Shown here: positions 13,912 to 47,568 of the stretch, in pieces
How positions within the stretch are numbered: position 1 is the stretch's first letter
How the letters are laid out: each line of letters starts with the position of its first letter
DNA from: Eledone cirrhosa
Taxonomy: Eukaryota
DNA length: 64,000 bases
Reading direction: 5' to 3'
Assembly: GCA_964016885.1 (NCBI GenBank)
Contig: OZ024740.1
Coordinates: 65,472,001 to 65,536,000, forward strand
Notes under the pieces: model-generated
What the model saw: only the letters and a program-made list of their open reading frames with translations
Databases searched by the model: none
Told to the model about the DNA's origin: nothing
Program-made: the position numbers and the translations under genes

Positions 13912-16500
13912 AACTGCTAAATCAATACCACCCAAGGAGGAAGTGCAAGAATTCTGGGAAAAGATCTGGGCCGAAGAAAAAGTTCATAACATACATGCCC
14001 CATAGATAGACAGACAAATGAAAGAAACAGCTCACCTTGAAGAACAAACATGGGAAAATATAACAGTTGAACAGCTGCGCTTGGCTCTAAGAAAAACCAG
14101 CAAATGGAAATCCCCAGGCAAAGACAAAATACAAAAGTTTTGGATAAATGCCTTCACAGAGTCTCATGAGCTGTTAGCCCAACTTTACAATGAAATAGTT
14201 AAGGAGCCAGAAAAGATACCATCATGGCTAGTTAACGGCATTACATTCCTGCTACCGAAGAATGATGAGACAAACAATCCCCAAAATTACAGACCGATAA
14301 CCTGCTTGACCACAATGTATAACATTTTAACATCAGTCCTAACTGAATACACATATGACCACCTGATAACAAATGACCTATTTCCCATTGAGCAGAAAGG
14401 GTGTAAACGAGGCTCATATGGCTGTAAGGATCAGCTTCTGATTAACAAAATGATACTGGAAGATTGTCATAATAGACACAAAAATCTATCGATTGCTTGG
14501 ATAGATTATACAAAAGCATTTGATAGTTTGCCACACAGTTGGATTGAAAAATGTTTAGAGATTTTCAAAATATCCCCCGTTGTCAGGAGGTTTTTGTCAT
14601 TCAGTATGAGGACATGGAGAACGACACTCCTTTTGAATAGTGAAACAAAATCACTGGAAGCTGGAGAAGTTAACATTAATTGTGGAATTTTTCAGGGTGA
14701 CTCTTTATCACCGCTTTTATTCTGCATCGCACTTATACCATTAAGTAAAATGCTCAATGAAACAAAACATGGATATAGAGTCTATGACAAAACCATTAAT
14801 CACCTGTTCTACATGGATGACCTGAAACTATTTGCAAAAAATGATGAACAATTGCAAGGGCTATTATCCACTGTGAAGCAGTTCAGTGATGACATTAAAA
14901 TGGAGTTTGGACTGGATAAATGCGCCAAAGCAACGTTCACCAGAGGAAAGCTGCTGAAGAGTTCAGACATTAATCTTGATCGGGGGAACGTGATAAGAGA
15001 GCTTGATCAAGAACAAACTTACAAATATCTAGGTGTTTGTGAAGGAGACGGAATCAAGCACTCGACAATGAGGGAAAGGGTAAGGAAGGAATGTTACCGC
15101 AGAGTCAGAGCAATCTTAAGAACGGAATTGAATGCAAGGAATAGGATCGATGCCATAAACACGCTTGCCATACCAGTAGTAACCTACAGTTACAATGTCA
15201 TCAACTGGTCAAGCACAGAGATCCGTAGGTTCGATACAAAAATCCGAAAATTCTTAGCCATGCACAGAATGCATCACCCTAAGGCAGACATAGATAGAAT
15301 ATATCTCCCTAGGAAAGAAGGAGAACGTGGGTTAATCCAGTTAGACATTGCGTTGAAAACTGCAACAATTGGATTATCCACACATCTAAGGGAATCACAT
15401 GATTGGATGATCAAACTCGTTTTTAAACACGAAAGCACCAAAAGATCATATTCCATTACAAAAGATGCACAAAGATACAGTAATGGACTACAAATTTCAG
15501 AAGTCCCATTTACTGCTGAAATGGAAAACACAGAAAAAGCAAAGCAGGTAAAAGTAACTGCAAAGAAAGAACTGCTACAGAAACTGGCTAAGAAATGGCA
15601 AGAAAAGCCTCTGTATGGAAAATACCCAGAGCGAGCTAACAATCCTGATGTTGACAAAACTTTAACCCATCAGTGGTTGGCATCCTCTGGACTAAAATCG
15701 GAGACTGAAGGACTGATTATATCGGTACAAGATCAGTGTCTGCCAACAAAAAATTACCAAGCCAACATAATAAAAAATGGGTGCAGCCCATTATGCCGTG
15801 TATGCAAAAAACAACCAGAGACCATTGACCATATAATTTCAATGTGCAGTCCTATAGCTCCAACCGAATACCTAAATAGGCATGACAGAGCTGCACAATA
15901 CATACATTGGATAATGTGTAATCATTTTGACCTGCCCCATCAAAAGAATTGGTGGGAGCATCAACCACCTCCCATACTTGAAAAAGATCACATCTCAATC
16001 TTGTGGAACTTTAGCATCCAAACAGACCGAAAAATAGATGCAAATAGACCTGATATAATATTGAAGGACTTTCAAAGGAGGGTATGCCTGCTAATTGATA
16101 TGTCTGTTCCAATAGACAAGAATGTATCTATAAAAACATTTGAAAAATTGAGCAAGTATAAGGACCTGGAGATAGAAATTGGAAAAATGTGGAAATTGAG
16201 AACTAAAACAATACCAGTGGTTGTAGGCGCTCTGGGAATGATACCTAAGGGGTCTAACGACTACTTATCGCAAATCCCAGGAAACCCGCGTATAGGAGAA
16301 ATACAAAAGATAGTACTAATGGGAACTGCCCATATACTAAGGAAGATCCTGTCAATATAAGTACATCACAAGTCTAAACACTAAGGATGCATGTGTGAAT
16401 ATGTGTGTTCTTTCTTGAACATGGCGGACCTTGTTGTCTCTTGAGGTCACTGGTTGTGACTTGGTGATAACTCGTATAAACATAAAGCAAGATAAATGCA

Positions 16501-16541: not shown

Positions 16542-16543
<2 letters not shown>

Positions 16544-17984
16544 GCAATTTGGTATTAGTAAGTGTGGAGTCATTGTGATGAGGAGGGGTAGGTTGAGCAG
16601 ATGTAACGGAATCCAGATACCAACAGGTGAGATGATAAAGGAAATTGACTCTGAGGAAGGATACAAGTATTTGGGCGTTCTGGTGGCTGATGGCATAAAG
16701 AACAAAAAAATGAAGGAATTGTTAAGAACTGAATACATTCGGAGAGTAAGGAGCGTATTGAAGTCACATCTGAACAGCAGAAATGCCATAAGCGCAGTAA
16801 ATTCCCGAGCTGTGTCTATTATTAGGTACAGTGCGGGAATTCTGAGATGGAATGTTGCTGAACAAAAAGAAATGGATAGGAAGACTAGGAAGCTATTGAC
16901 TATCTACAACATGTTCCACAAGAGGAGTGATGTCGATAGACTCTACTTAAGGTGATCTGAGGGTGGAAGAGGTCTTATCAACATAGAGGACTGTGTTCAG
17001 ATGGAGAAAAATAACCTACACAAATACGTGACTGATAGTAAGGAGCCAATGCTCAGAACTGTACTGAAGGAGGGGACAATAGGCCAAGGGATGTCCAAGG
17101 AGGAAATAACATCAAGGAGAAAGAGCAGCCTTCAGGAAAAATCCCTTCATAGTACCTTCTTTGAGAAAACTGAATTTAGAGATCCACAGACATGGAACTG
17201 GTTGAAAAGAGGAGACATTAAAAAGGCTACAGAAGGAATGTTAATGGCTGCGCAGGAGCAGGCCCTCAAAACGAAGTGGTTGAAACACCATATTTACAAG
17301 GAGGAGACTAGCCCACTGTGCAGGATCTGTGGAGAGAGAGAGGAGACTGTGGCTCACATTGTATCCGAGTGTAAACACCTAGCCCAGACCCACTATAAGG
17401 GCTGAAGACATGATGTGATGGGCAGGGTGATCCACTGGCACCTGTGCAAAGTAAACAGTTTACCACATTCTGAGAAATGGTATGAGCATAAGCCAAAGGC
17501 GGTGATAGAGAACGATCAGGTGAAGGTGCTGTGGGATTTTAGGATACAGACGGACAAGAAAATGAAACACAATAGACCTGACCTGGTGGTTGTGGACAAG
17601 GAAAAAAGATCGTGCCTGATTGTGGATGTGGCCTGCCCATTCGACACGAGAGTGCAATAGAAGGAGAGGGAGAAAATTAACCGATACCAGGACTTAAAGT
17701 GGGAGGTAAAAAGGATTTGGAACTGACATGAAGTCAAAGTGATCCCGATTGTCATAGCCGCACTGGGGACTATCTCCAAAAGTTTCCAGGGATGGTTAAA
17801 GAAAATCGGCCCCTTCACGCTTTTTGGAACGCTTCAAAAGGCATGCTCGCTGGGAACAGCAAGAACCCTCCGATACGTCCTGAATATCTGAGGCTGCAGG
17901 TAGTGGCTTGATATTCATTCCGACAAACTATCCAGTTAACTAACATCAATGACTGAGACTCAAGGAATAATAACAATAATAATG
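16542..17984 (+). mobile_element. R4/Dong-type LINE (family B), 5'-truncated, with in-frame stops
   Basis: ORFs 16542..16955, 17001..17405 and 17415..17660 are one frame broken by stops (YKYLG, CRIC..ETVAHIVSEC, RPD). AAT tail. Confidence 0.92.
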
Positions 17985-22844: not shown

Positions 22845-24769
22845 TCTAGATAAACAACTTGTTACCGGACGAACAGAAAAGATGCCGAAAGAAGTCCCGT
22901 GGTACAAAGGACCAGTTACTTATTGATAAGATGGTAATGAGGAATTGCAGGAGGAGACACACTGGTCTTGCCATGGGATAGACTACAAAAAGGCATTCGA
23001 CATGGTATCTCATTCTTGGATCACCAAAATCCTAGAGATCTTCAAGGTGGCAGATAACATCAGACAGTTGTTGATCAAAAGTATGAAGTCCTGGAAAACA
23101 GAGTTAACATTGGCTGGATAATTCTTTGGAGGCATGAAGTTCAAGAGAGGTATCTTCCAGGGAGATAGTCTGTCCCCTCAGTTGTTTGTCCTTGCCCTGA
23201 TACCCCTGACAATTATACAGCGAAAAGTGAGAGCAGAATACAAGTTGAGAAAGGGAGAGCTTACCATCAAACACCTACTCTTCATGGACGATCTTAAGCT
23301 ATTCGGAAAGAGTGAGAAGGAGTTGGATGTGCTTGTTGACAATGTCCGTATTTTCAGCAAAGATATATGTATGCAATTTGGTATTAGTAAGTGTGGAGTC
23401 CTTGTGATGAAGAGAGGTAAATTGAGCAGAAGCAAAGGAATCCAGGTACCAACAGGTGAGATGATAAAGGAAATTGACACTGAAGAAGGATACAAATATT
23501 TAGGTGTTCTGGAGGCTGATGACATCAAGAACAAAGGAATGAAGGAATTGATAAGATCTGAATACATTCGGAGAGTAAGGAGCGTATTAAAATCACATCT
23601 GAACAGTAGGAATGGCATAAGTGCTGTAAATTCCCGATCTGTGTCTATTATTAGGTACTGTGCGGGAATTCTGAGATGGAATGTTGCTGAACAAAAAGAA
23701 ATGGATAGGAAGATTAGGAAGCTATTGACTATCTAAAACATGTTCCACAAGAGGAGTGATGTCGATAGACTCTACTTAAGGAGATCTGAAGGTAGAAGAG
23801 GTCTTATCAGCATAGAGGACTGTGTTCAGATGGAGAAAAACAACCTACACAAATACGTGACTGATAGTAGAGAGCCGATGCACAGAATTGTACTGAAGGA
23901 GAGAACAACAGACCAGGGGATGTCAAAGGAGGAAATAACAATAAGGAGAAATAGCAACCTTCATGAAAAATCCCTTCATAGTACATTCTTTGAGAAAACT
24001 GAATTTAGAGATCCACAGACATGGAACTGGTTGAAAAGATGAGACCTTAAAAGGGCTACTGAAGTAATGCTAATGGCTGCGAATCACCATATTTACAAGG
24101 AGGAGGCTAGCCCACTGTGTAGGATCTGTGGAGAGAGAGAGGGGAGACTGTGGCTCACATTGTATCCGAGTGTAAACACCTAGCCCAGACTCACTATAAA
24201 GGCTGGAGACATGATGTGATGGGCAGGGTGATCCACTGGCACCTATGCAAAGTAAACAATTTACCACATTCTGCGAAGTGGTATGAGCATAATCCAGAGT
24301 CGGTCATAGAAAACGATCAGGTGAAGGTGCTGTGGGATTTTAGGATACAGACGGACAAGAAACTGGAACACAATAGACCTGACCTGGTGGTTTTGGACAA
24401 GGAAAATAAATCGTGCCTGATTGTGGAATTGGCCTGCCCATTCGACAGAAGATTGTAAGAGAAGGAGAGGAAGAAAATTAACCTATACCAGGAATTAAAG
24501 AGGGAGATAAAAAGGATTTGGAACTGCCATGAAGTTAAAGTGGTCCCGATTATCATAGGCGCACTAGGTACTATTTCAAAGAGTTTCCAAGGATGGTTAA
24601 AGAAAATTGGTCCCGCCCCGCTTTTTGGAACACTTCAAAAATCATGGTAGCTGGGAACAGCAAGAACCCTCCGATACGCCCTGAATATCTGAGGCTGCAC
24701 GTAATGGCTTGATATTCATTTCAACACACTTTCAAGTTAAATAACATCATTGACTGAGACTCAAAGAAC

Positions 24770-32656: not shown

Positions 32657-32987
32657 AATTTTCTCCTCACTCATCCTTCCTTCGTATACTCCTCCTCCGT
32701 CATCATTTCCTTATTATTATATTTTCTTTCTTCTATCTATATTTTTTTCTTCCTCTTCCTTACCTTTTCTTTCCCCCTTCCTTTCCTTTTTTACAATCTC
32801 ATATATCCCTCTGATTTTATTTTTCACATGTTGATTTGACACTTCACTGCTCACAAATGCTTTTTAATCTTCATATCACGTCTCCTTATTTTATCTGATG
32901 AGAATGCAAATATCATCCCATGATGATATTTGTTTTTGAAATGCGCATAATAAAATACATAGAACTCTTTTAACCACCTTTTGATTT

Positions 32988-32995
<8 letters not shown>
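31069..32995 (+). mobile_element. Penelope-like element (Naiad-type), duplicate copy
   Basis: Duplicate of 27940-30114. The frame is open from TGA 31540 through ORF 31600..31887. Confidence 0.85.
32887..32957 (+). ncRNA. Minimal type I hammerhead ribozyme (duplicate)
   Basis: Identical to 30006-30076. Confidence 0.88.
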
Positions 32996-33070
<75 letters not shown>

Positions 33071-33076
<6 letters not shown>

Positions 33077-33534
33077 ATGTATTTTGCAATACACTTTATG
33101 CTTAATTAAAAGCATTTTGAAGACCGTAAGCTATTGTTTTAAAGTAGTGACAAATTCACTCACTTTGATCTCCACAAACAGGAGGAGATAAGCCGACATG
33201 ACATGTTTCGCTTTTGTTGAAGCTTATCAAGGCCAACTACCCCGCCTGTCTACTGAGATCAATGATGTTATATTCTTATAGAAATCTAGTAAATAATCAG
33301 GAGCTGATTATGCAGAGCGGTTGTTGGTCAGGCAGAAATTAAAAATTAGAATTGGAGCTCTGAAATAGCAATATATATATGGATGTATATATAATGTATT
33401 TTGCAATACACTTTATGCTTAATTAAAAGCATTTTGAAGACCGTAAGCTATTGTTTTAAAGTAGTGACAAATTCACTCACTTTGATCTCAGCAAACAGGA
33501 GGAGATAAGCCGACATGACATGTTTCGCTTGTTG
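33071..33534 (-). mobile_element. Retrozyme-like partial tandem unit, period 317 nt, hammerhead-containing
   Basis: 33071-33217 repeats at 33388-33534. Homologous to 46800-47242. Confidence 0.8.
33191..33234 (-). ncRNA. Type I hammerhead ribozyme with core substitutions
   Basis: Minus strand reads ggcc-TTGATAA-gctt..aagc-GAAA-catgtcatg-TC-ggct. Confidence 0.7.
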
Positions 33535-33850
33535 CTACACATTTTATATCCAGCCTGTATTGATTAGCCACTGGTGCACCAGGGAGTTCGATGCTGCCGC
33601 CCTAAGGTTTCCCTCGTGCCTTGCTGTGGGCTCATCCGGGATACTGGAAAGCAAGGTGTCGAGATGTTTCTTGAAGACCTCCACATCAACATTATGCAGA
33701 TCTCTCATATCCCTAGGCAGCTTGTTGAAGAGTTGAGGGCCCTTGAACCCCAGGCTATTGCAATGTCTGCTCCTTATTCTAGATGTGGAAGAGGGGACAT
33801 TTGGCACCACACAGTGGCGTCCTGTTCGACATTGATCCATCTCCCAAAGT
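33535..33850 (-). mobile_element. CR1/L2/Jockey-group LINE 3' fragment
   Basis: NSLGFKGPQLFNKLP...FKKHLDTLLSSIPDEP is typical of the ORF2 C-terminus. Confidence 0.75.
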
Positions 33851-33851
33851 A

Positions 33852-33926
<75 letters not shown>

Positions 33927-38948: not shown

Positions 38949-38996
38949 AATCCTGATGATTTCTAAAGAATGAAACAGTTCTAGTCCTGTAGAATC
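38949..38996 (+). ncRNA. Type I hammerhead ribozyme, weak stem I
   Basis: CTGATGA-t-ttc taaa gaa-t-GAAA-cag..ctg-TA-ga. Confidence 0.68.
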
Positions 38997-39733
38997 TTAG
39001 AAATTGAGGTTTATTTACAAAAGGAAAAATAACCGAGGTGTCCTACACGAGTGAAAGTATAAGGAAAAAGAGATGAAATCGAAAATGCAACTGGAGTCTT
39101 ATTTTTTAAAAATTATATATATATTTATTTGGTTCCTTTACCGGTTTCGCAGTTCTTCTGCTTTTCAAAAGTAGATTTGAGATGGAGGGTCTGTGGTTTT
39201 TCTCACATCTGATGTGAGAAAAACCACAGTATGTATGTATTTATATGTATGTTTGTTGTGTTTGTGTGCCTGTGTGTGCGCGTGTGTGTACGTGTGAAAG
39301 TGGGCGCGTGTGTGAATGTGCTTGTTGACACCTGGAATATAAATTAAGAGAAACTTCACAATAAAGGGAAGCACCCCTAACTCAAACCTGTTTATAGAAC
39401 ACTTTCTGCCTTTTTCACCCTTATTTCAGCCATAATGAATTAGCTTCTAAATAATTTCCTTTTTCTTTAAACCAATGAACCCCACCCATCCTCTAGACAC
39501 CTGACTTACAGGCATTGTTAGTTTAAGAGATAAACAAGTATTGATATTCCAATTGGAACCAATACAGTACCCTTTCTGCCTTTGTGAATATAAATTATAG
39601 CTTTAAATTATTAGCTTTTAATGAACTCCCTTTTCTTTAAATCCATTAACCAATGACCTCCACCCATCCCAATCCCCACCCTCTCCTACCACCAGAAAAT
39701 ATATAAATACCACCACATTTACTTGGACAGTCT

Positions 39734-46649: not shown

Positions 46650-46732
<83 letters not shown>

Positions 46733-46758
46733 TCACCTTTATAGGCCTGAGGATCTGA

Positions 46759-46799
<41 letters not shown>

Positions 46800-46804
<5 letters not shown>

Positions 46805-47239
46805 ACTACTTTAAAACAATAGCGTAAGGTCTTCAGAATGCTTTTAATTAAACTTACAGTGTATTGCAAAATACACTATATATATATTCATATATATATC
46901 GCTATTTCACAGCACCAATTCTAATTTTCAATTTCTGCTGGACAGGCAACCGTTCTGTATAATCAGTTCCTGATTATTACTGGAATTCTATAAGAATCCA
47001 ACATTCATAATTTTTAACAAGGGGAGTGGTAAACTCTGAAGAGTACCAACAGTACGAAACAGAGATCTGTCAGCTCATCTCCCTTTGTTTGCTGAAAAAA
47101 GAAGTAAGTGGCATAGTCACTACTTTAAAACAATAGTGTAAGGTCTTCAAAATGCTTTTAATTATGCATACAGTGTATTGCAAAATACACTATATATATA
47201 CATTCATATATATATCGCTATTTCAGAGCACCAATTCTA

Positions 47240-47242
<3 letters not shown>
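46800..47242 (+). mobile_element. Retrozyme-like partial tandem unit, period 314 nt, between (TA)n
   Basis: 46800-46926 repeats at 47114-47242, with one hammerhead per monomer. Confidence 0.82.
47032..47075 (+). ncRNA. Type I hammerhead ribozyme
   Basis: aact-CTGAAGA-gtac caaca gtac-GAAA-cag agat ctg-TC-agct. Confidence 0.8.
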
Positions 47243-47279
<37 letters not shown>

Positions 47280-47403
47280 GAAGTAATTCCATCGGAAAAG
47301 TCCAGGAAAAAAGAGTGCTCTATGTAGGCAACAGAGCTTAATTATTATTATTATGTAAGAAACCACTGGTAAATGGAATAATTGCCTTATGTTGTTTATT
47401 ACG

Positions 47404-47568
47404 TACGTAGGTGATATTTTAAATAAACATGTTTTAAATAAACATGTTTTAACGGTCTATTCTCCGATTTTTCACTTTCCCACGTATATATATATATATT
47501 TTACGTAGCTGATATTTTAAATAAACATGTTTTAACGGTCTATTCTCCGATTTTTCACTTTCCCACGT
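47404..47568 (+). repeat. Direct repeat of about 65 bp separated by a TA run
   Basis: tacgtag.tgatattttaaataaacatgttttaacggtctattctccgatttttcactttcccacg occurs twice. Confidence 0.85.

Follow-up and report, generated by a model that had tools for sequence, protein, structure and literature searches.

A non-coding repeat of about 316 nt in the genome of Eledone cirrhosa combines a covarying type I hammerhead motif with Penelope-type insertion ends and is probably mobilised by a Penelope-like reverse transcriptase (RT)-endonuclease, most plausibly of Neptune type, that would reverse-transcribe into (TA)n a circular RNA formed by self-cleavage and ligation of a monomer. The element is a new family of the already known animal non-LTR retrozymes, and it comes with unusually good genomic evidence on mechanism. 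Two copies lie in the window, the 64,000-nt stretch of DNA analysed here, as single-armed insertions of 1.4-1.5 units that each hold one complete type I hammerhead motif and together represent both types of 3' end found in the family (Table 1).

Table 1. Positions of the two copies and their parts in the window (m, position in the unit)
Feature	Position	Strand	Remark
Copy 1, full 314-nt unit of subfamily 1 (m1-m314)	46802..47115	+	single-armed insertion; 5' end abuts a TA run
Copy 1, second pass (m1-m126), 128 nt	47116..47243	+	stops at the 'tailed' 3' site; 94% identity with first pass
Internal TA-rich stretch, ending at m98, the family's 'short' 3' start site	46876..46899	+	
'Tail' of 26-28 nt (m99-m126), separating the two 3' start sites	46900..46927	+	
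(TA)n run flanking copy 1 on its 3' side	47244..47277	.	putative target microsatellite
Type I hammerhead motif of copy 1, C3-G8 core at 47036-47042, near-palindromic helix III	47017..47089	+	predicted cut after 47071
Copy 2, subfamily 2, 1.5 units (m256 round to m98)	33054..33530	-	ends at the 'short' 3' site, followed by a TA run
Type I hammerhead motif of copy 2, U3-A8 core (33230-33224)	33177..33249	-	predicted cut after 33195
Second hammerhead of copy 2, 3' half only, without the core	33495..33530	-	remnant of 5' truncation; microhomology join to a LINE-like 3' fragment

The units of the two copies, numbered m1-m316 with m1 at window position 46802, are only 77% identical (245/319; BLAST E 3e-102), and the copies are therefore assigned to different subfamilies. 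The layout that the initial annotation had given for copy 1, with a period of 314, stands; for copy 2 the period of 317 and the minus strand are likewise retained, but the limits of 33071-33534 were a few bases off (33530-33054). The repeated part of copy 2 is 97-99% identical. As had also been stated, the copies are free of ORFs, the sole ATG ORFs of at least 30 aa being two that run into TA repeats.

The surroundings of the copies contain several other repeats. The LINE-like 3' fragment joined to copy 2 (33531-33860, minus strand) lacks its terminal 70 nt at the microhomology join, whereas intact ends of this element are present in loci L151 and L104. At 32850-32995 and 47276-47420, members of other repeat families have ends that adjoin the same TA runs as the copies; these families recur next to retrozyme loci elsewhere and are possibly further TA-targeting elements. 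A non-LTR retrotransposon with a 784-aa open frame and an RVT_1 domain (E 1.5e-27) occupies 14006-16360 on the plus strand, with related decayed pieces at 16542-17405 and 23122-23736.

The assignment of the hammerhead depends on core letters and covariation, since Rfam returns no hammerhead match at gathering score in the window, nor at E<=10 in 46700-47300. In copy 1 the predicted motif consists of the core CUGAAGA (47036-47042), stem II GTAC/GTAC, GAAA (47056-47059) and GUC (47069-47071), with two mispairs in stem I relative to its own subfamily (47033 and 47076). Copy 2 has stem II GCTT/AAGC and stem III CAT/ATG, so that, as first observed from the two copies, the stems differ and yet pair; its core UUGAUAA (33230-33224), overlooked at that stage, contains a U3-A8 pair. 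A decayed hammerhead in copy 2 is ruled out as the origin of this core, U3-A8 being fixed in its subfamily (536 exact matches). Across 146 distinct motifs, positions 3 and 8 form C-G in 79 and U-A in 64, and are mismatched in 3. A covariation test on 13 sequences, inflated by the relatedness among them, finds that 89.9% of cells pair and that double changes occur at all four stem II pairs; double-change cells number 29 versus 10.1 in shuffles (reached by 0 of 500 shuffles), and slid controls give at most 1. Helix III varies between subfamilies and is self-complementary in each, with 0-2 central mismatches. This covariation, together with the retained self-complementarity of helix III, indicates selection on the hammerhead fold. 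In favour of a circular RNA, the circular plus strand folds with z-scores of -5.6 and -6.7, which are partly due to the long stem I of the hammerhead; the minus strand of subfamily 1 folds too (z -4.0).

Hammerheads of Penelope-like elements (PLEs) offer a close parallel. Cervera and de la Pena (2014, PMC4209133) report U3-A8 in place of C3-G8 in Schistosoma Cercyon elements and interpret a palindromic helix III as pointing to hammerheads that work as dimers. The present motifs share both the U3-A8 core and the palindromic helix III with those described in that source, but differ from them in a longer helix III (a 9-12 nt palindrome), a long stem I, and the coexistence of C3-G8 and U3-A8 among subfamilies of one retrozyme.

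The family is distributed genome-wide in thousands of copies, in agreement with its first description as a non-coding, retrozyme-like repeat of about 315 nt. A 25-nt tag (m100-124) has 6,145 exact matches in the 3.0-Gb assembly, several per locus, versus 0 for a control, and the hammerhead tags of the three subfamilies have 536, 514 and 219. Subfamily 1 is older than subfamily 2. Unit lengths are 314-317 nt, and tandem copies extend to a 6.5-mer at C1:6.52 Mb and a 165-unit array on C2. An LTR-interior-LTR layout is absent among the 194 loci whose ends were mapped. With a type I hammerhead motif per unit, tandem units within the 150-450 bp range, no coding capacity and no LTR pair, the family possesses every feature of non-LTR retrozymes that can be assessed from sequence.

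The 194 end-mapped loci were drawn by hammerhead tag in genome order (48 + 36), tail tag (59), score (31) and membership of the third subfamily (20); duplicated loci (L146, L234 and L257), overlapping extracts of one locus and array loci L040-L060 were left out of the counts. In 134 of the 194, two inverted arms are joined at their 5' ends. Among the 88 such insertions whose outer ends both lie at the two common sites, 84 combine an end at m94-99 with one at m122-135 (73/77 + 11/11), the exceptions being three with two tailed ends and one with two short ends. The family thus has two fixed 3' sites, some 26-33 bases apart, each followed by (TA)n. Outer 3' ends lie at these two sites in 59 of 64 cases in subfamily 2 (58 followed by TA) and in 56 of 76 in subfamily 1 (43 followed by TA), while 5' ends are scattered across the unit. 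The initial annotation had proposed plotting the start and end points of genomic copies on the monomer and had read the two window copies as different circular permutations. Freely placed start points are not what the plot reveals: the 5' ends do scatter over the whole unit, but the 3' ends are fixed, so that the two layouts reflect two 3' starts combined with random 5' truncation. Two permutations alone are consequently no evidence of a circle, because any Penelope-type insertion displays fixed 3' starts and truncation.

Two further proposals made from the window copies are borne out by these loci. Reverse transcription passes beyond one unit length, with 53 of 73 subfamily 2 arms longer than one unit and 12 longer than two, and the internal TA-rich junction is a genuine priming end, coinciding with the outer 3' end in 30 of 64 subfamily 2 cases. 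Annealing of this junction to (TA)n is plausible; a PLE studied in vitro starts without target homology (Frangieh et al. 2024, PMC11167929). At single-armed 5' joins, short inverted duplications of flanking DNA occur nearby in the 5' flanks of L157, L162, L203, L207, L226 and L262, which suggests fold-back synthesis during insertion. A literature search of titles and abstract openings found no description of two-armed retrozyme insertions, a result that does not imply their absence from print.

The same architecture characterises PLEs, for which an inverted-arm layout with one end bearing a tail of 30-40 bp has been described (Craig et al. 2021, PMC8557442). In the work of Frangieh et al. (2024, PMC11167929), the tail length reflects how far apart two RT initiation sites lie, and both strands undergo extension by the enzyme. 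Partial tandems, an inverted 5'-truncated arm, a tail at one end, microsatellite bias and two RT start sites are all shared with the endonuclease-positive PLEs of Neptune/Naiad type described in these two papers, from which the present family differs in its lack of an ORF, its unit of only 316 nt, its tail of 26-33 nt and its multi-round arms. Coding elements with RT and GIY-YIG domains are abundant in the assembly, with 10,595 candidates, 150 of which were scored. Several have a CxxxxCxxC linker, as in Neptune and Nematis, and these elements show TA ends, two-armed insertions and two alternative ends. At 8 of 84 family loci a coding PLE end shares the TA run. In 50 GIY-YIG loci (30 + 20) from the 10,595 candidates there is no unit likeness or pseudo-LTR (pLTR) homology, bar one nested insertion, and a partner enzyme of this kind is accordingly proposed from shared insertion habits. 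Mobilisation by a Penelope-like RT-endonuclease is likely, and that enzyme is probably of Neptune type.

PLE-like ends, tail, inversion and TA targeting would also be expected if the copies were 5'-truncated pLTRs of an ordinary coding PLE, and two free 5' ends (L222 and L286) abut PLE sequence head to head. This origin is nevertheless very improbable. Arms continue into more units and never into an ORF, the hammerheads of coding families differ, and 61 loci selected by the 3' tail alone share no foreign upstream sequence. The initial annotation had named fixed ends attached to a coding PLE as the mark of a pLTR; the 3' ends are indeed fixed, but no coding element is attached in 56 free 5' flanks (a set including one duplicate and one alignment artefact), which have no upstream ORF in common. 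The abutments in L222 and L286 are explicable as target DNA, and the pLTR reading is already largely refuted.

Locus L222 (1499-2112) contains a retrozyme arm head to head with a PLE 3' end, with TA at both ends. Its reading as a two-RNA chimera that would name the partner is weak, because a 5' join may remove target sequence, about 70 nt in the case of copy 2; moreover, the retrozyme arm matches its relatives at no more than 96%, as against 99% for the PLE arm. The abutment in L286 was set aside as partner evidence, target DNA explaining it likewise. A full-length young PLE is present in L091:3000-7600 (C1:145.87 Mb), with a 938-aa open frame encoding RT and GIY-YIG, two pLTRs 4,979 bp apart that each contain a minimal U3-A8 hammerhead, a TA end, and two 3' ends 99 nt apart; a 3' fragment of this family lies in the window at 38994-39211 (minus strand). 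A U3-A8 motif likewise occurs in a second PLE family (L061 with its relatives), and the two-armed fragment at window positions 60658-61303 matches the 3' region of another GIY-YIG family (L095).

A 53-kb array of subfamily 2 lies in C2:207,686,300-207,740,009 (L113-L119), where the insertion itself (207,687,219-207,740,009) comprises 165 units, mostly of 316 and 304 nt, in higher-order patterns. Its plus (long) arm ends at m98 and TA, and its short inverted arm at m124 and TA; the array is a satellite grown within one normal two-armed insertion by DNA-level amplification.

Array and dispersed loci share a mutational hot spot in loop 3 of the hammerhead. In subfamily 2, the C at m269 is variable among the units of a single locus in 8 of 95 calls versus a 0.4% background (P 1e-8); in the window the counterpart of m269-270 is 33200-33199 (minus strand), and the C at 33200 is unchanged in copy 2. 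Outside the array, m269 is changed in 20 places genome-wide (A 9, T 6, G 5), 10 of them outside the earlier sample and 7 with a tandem change of the next base, whereas a control C in loop 2 gives 0. The equivalent base of subfamily 1 shows a weaker excess (7/42 versus 4.4%), and the third subfamily, represented by loci chosen for an intact helix III, shows none. Three different m269 errors in the three passes of L190 suggest RT error, while within the array the hot spot needs 14 parsimony steps versus a mean of 0.42, which suggests a DNA-level hot spot at a short palindrome. A purely RT origin is not established, as the same base changes repeatedly on duplicated array backgrounds, and the balance leans toward a DNA-level origin.

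Variants inside multi-pass arms are better evidence on the nature of the template than the permutations. A polymorphic allele found in such an arm is present in every pass in 76 of 82 cases (50/52 + 26/30, from at least 6 and at least 10 haplotypes, respectively); variant counts leave out the TA-rich m72-100 and arm ends, and 8 odd-length array units were dropped. Of 132 site-locus comparisons made at five marker sites, 107 spanning both arms, 3 are discordant. In L120 (two sites), L185 and L032, every unit carries variants that are private among the sampled loci; in L185 and L032 this holds for both arms. Unit-specific variants common to several loci are rare (9/176 and 8/163). A monomer bottleneck thus appears to recur, because a linear multimer lineage would not homogenise new variants without extra steps, whereas a circular template imposes such a bottleneck directly. 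On these sequence patterns, and on the indel-free crossings of the predicted cut site, a ligated monomer circle has a fairly good chance of being the template.

Some observations run counter to the circle. 5' ends do not pile up at the predicted cut (1/76 and 4/64), and arms of exactly one round are not in excess (22 versus 74, P 0.27); tailed arms alone give P 0.02 for a one-round peak, a value that is not trusted, as three tests were run. L300 contains two haplotypes in successive passes of one arm. From the experimental side, the Poseidon PLE uses uncleaved RNA in vitro, its hammerhead being dispensable (PMC11167929), and of 9 predicted Xenopus retrozymes, Li et al. (preprint) saw cleavage in vitro for just 1.

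An alternative template is an uncleaved linear multimer transcript copied by the same enzyme, with RT starting internally at m98 or m124 and reading back through head-to-tail units, multimers renewed by DNA-level duplication, and the hammerhead serving in transcript processing or as a passenger. Internal initiation at two sites and uncleaved RNA as the main substrate have been described in vitro (PMC11167929), arrays with DNA-level amplification and higher-order repeats are present, and mixed passes such as those of L300 would follow. Clean cut-site junctions are expected as well, and a young homogeneous multimer would give the same daughters as a circle. Each new variant would, however, have to spread to all source units before copying, and at least 16 haplotypes are homogeneous across passes. 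The scarcity of unit-specific variants that recur between loci is a further difficulty, and the array markers (a 12-nt deletion, 204C and 315G) are neither fixed nor recurrent in the sampled dispersed multi-copy loci. A linear multimer is accordingly considered unlikely, though it deserves to be taken seriously.

A linear self-cleaved monomer, on which RT, having reached the 5' end, would jump to the 3' end of that molecule or of a sister, would likewise produce a monomer bottleneck with occasional mixed haplotypes, as in L300, and the mutation hot spot 4-5 nt past the cut agrees with it. End-jumping generally adds or removes bases at the junction. The predicted cut site is crossed 145 times with 0 indels, which argues against such jumps, and in the 8-nt junction at the cut, 1,157 base calls include 7 substitutions and no indel. 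Together with the lack of a 5'-end pile-up at the cut, these counts render a linear monomer template improbable.

With the ligated circle as the preferred template, mobilisation might proceed as follows. Multimer loci would be transcribed, and paired hammerheads, which probably act as dimers because helix III is self-complementary, would excise monomers for circularisation by a host ligase. The enzyme would then nick both strands of a TA run and use both as primers, with one start at m98 and the other at m124-131. Round the circle, arms would extend for differing distances (as many as 6.5 rounds are seen) until their 5' ends are joined to each other. Copies with one arm, such as copies 1 and 2, would arise by a microhomology join to the flank, often with loss of target. 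More speculatively, and with the chances against it, each two-armed insertion might document directly in the genome how a dimeric Penelope-type enzyme, starting on both nicked strands, travelled round a single ligated RNA circle without requiring homology to the coding element, and the hot spot five bases past the ligation site might be the RT footprint on that circle. If this were true, the circular-template model of retrozyme and PLE mobility would become a countable signature and cease to be a proposal.

Known metazoan non-LTR retrozymes resemble the family in their non-coding units of 150-450 bp, type I hammerhead, low GC and range from monomers to long arrays (Cervera and de la Pena 2020, PMC7229834). 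For those elements, experiments demonstrated cleavage and circles, which in the present family are predicted from genome sequence; the text compared here does not mention a pair of fixed start sites, inverted two-armed insertions or targeting of (TA)n. Repeats of this kind, with units of about 313-342 bp in insects, amphibians and coral, are regarded as non-autonomous PLE derivatives in the preprint of Li et al., on the basis of co-occurrence and pLTR homology (24 of 57 Xenopus families). The family fits this reading, but pLTR homology is absent from the 50 GIY-YIG loci compared here and the PLE mechanism is visible in the insertion ends instead. Two consecutive complete motifs, the mark of an 'active' element in that preprint, occur in many family members and in neither window copy.

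Copying of more than one unit from a circular template was proposed for PLEs (PMC4209133), as was a circular template with PLE mobilisation for metazoan retrozymes (PMC7229834). The circle origin and the enzyme of animal retrozymes thus stand as proposals in these sources, and the in vitro PLE study found cleavage unnecessary (PMC11167929). The present family is young, abundant and haplotype-marked, so it permits a direct test by comparison of the two arms, and of every round, within one insertion. A satellite array can also be seen at its origin, with the two original insertion ends still in place. The value of the family lies in the evidence that it contributes on retrozyme mobility and in its use as a test system for that mobility.
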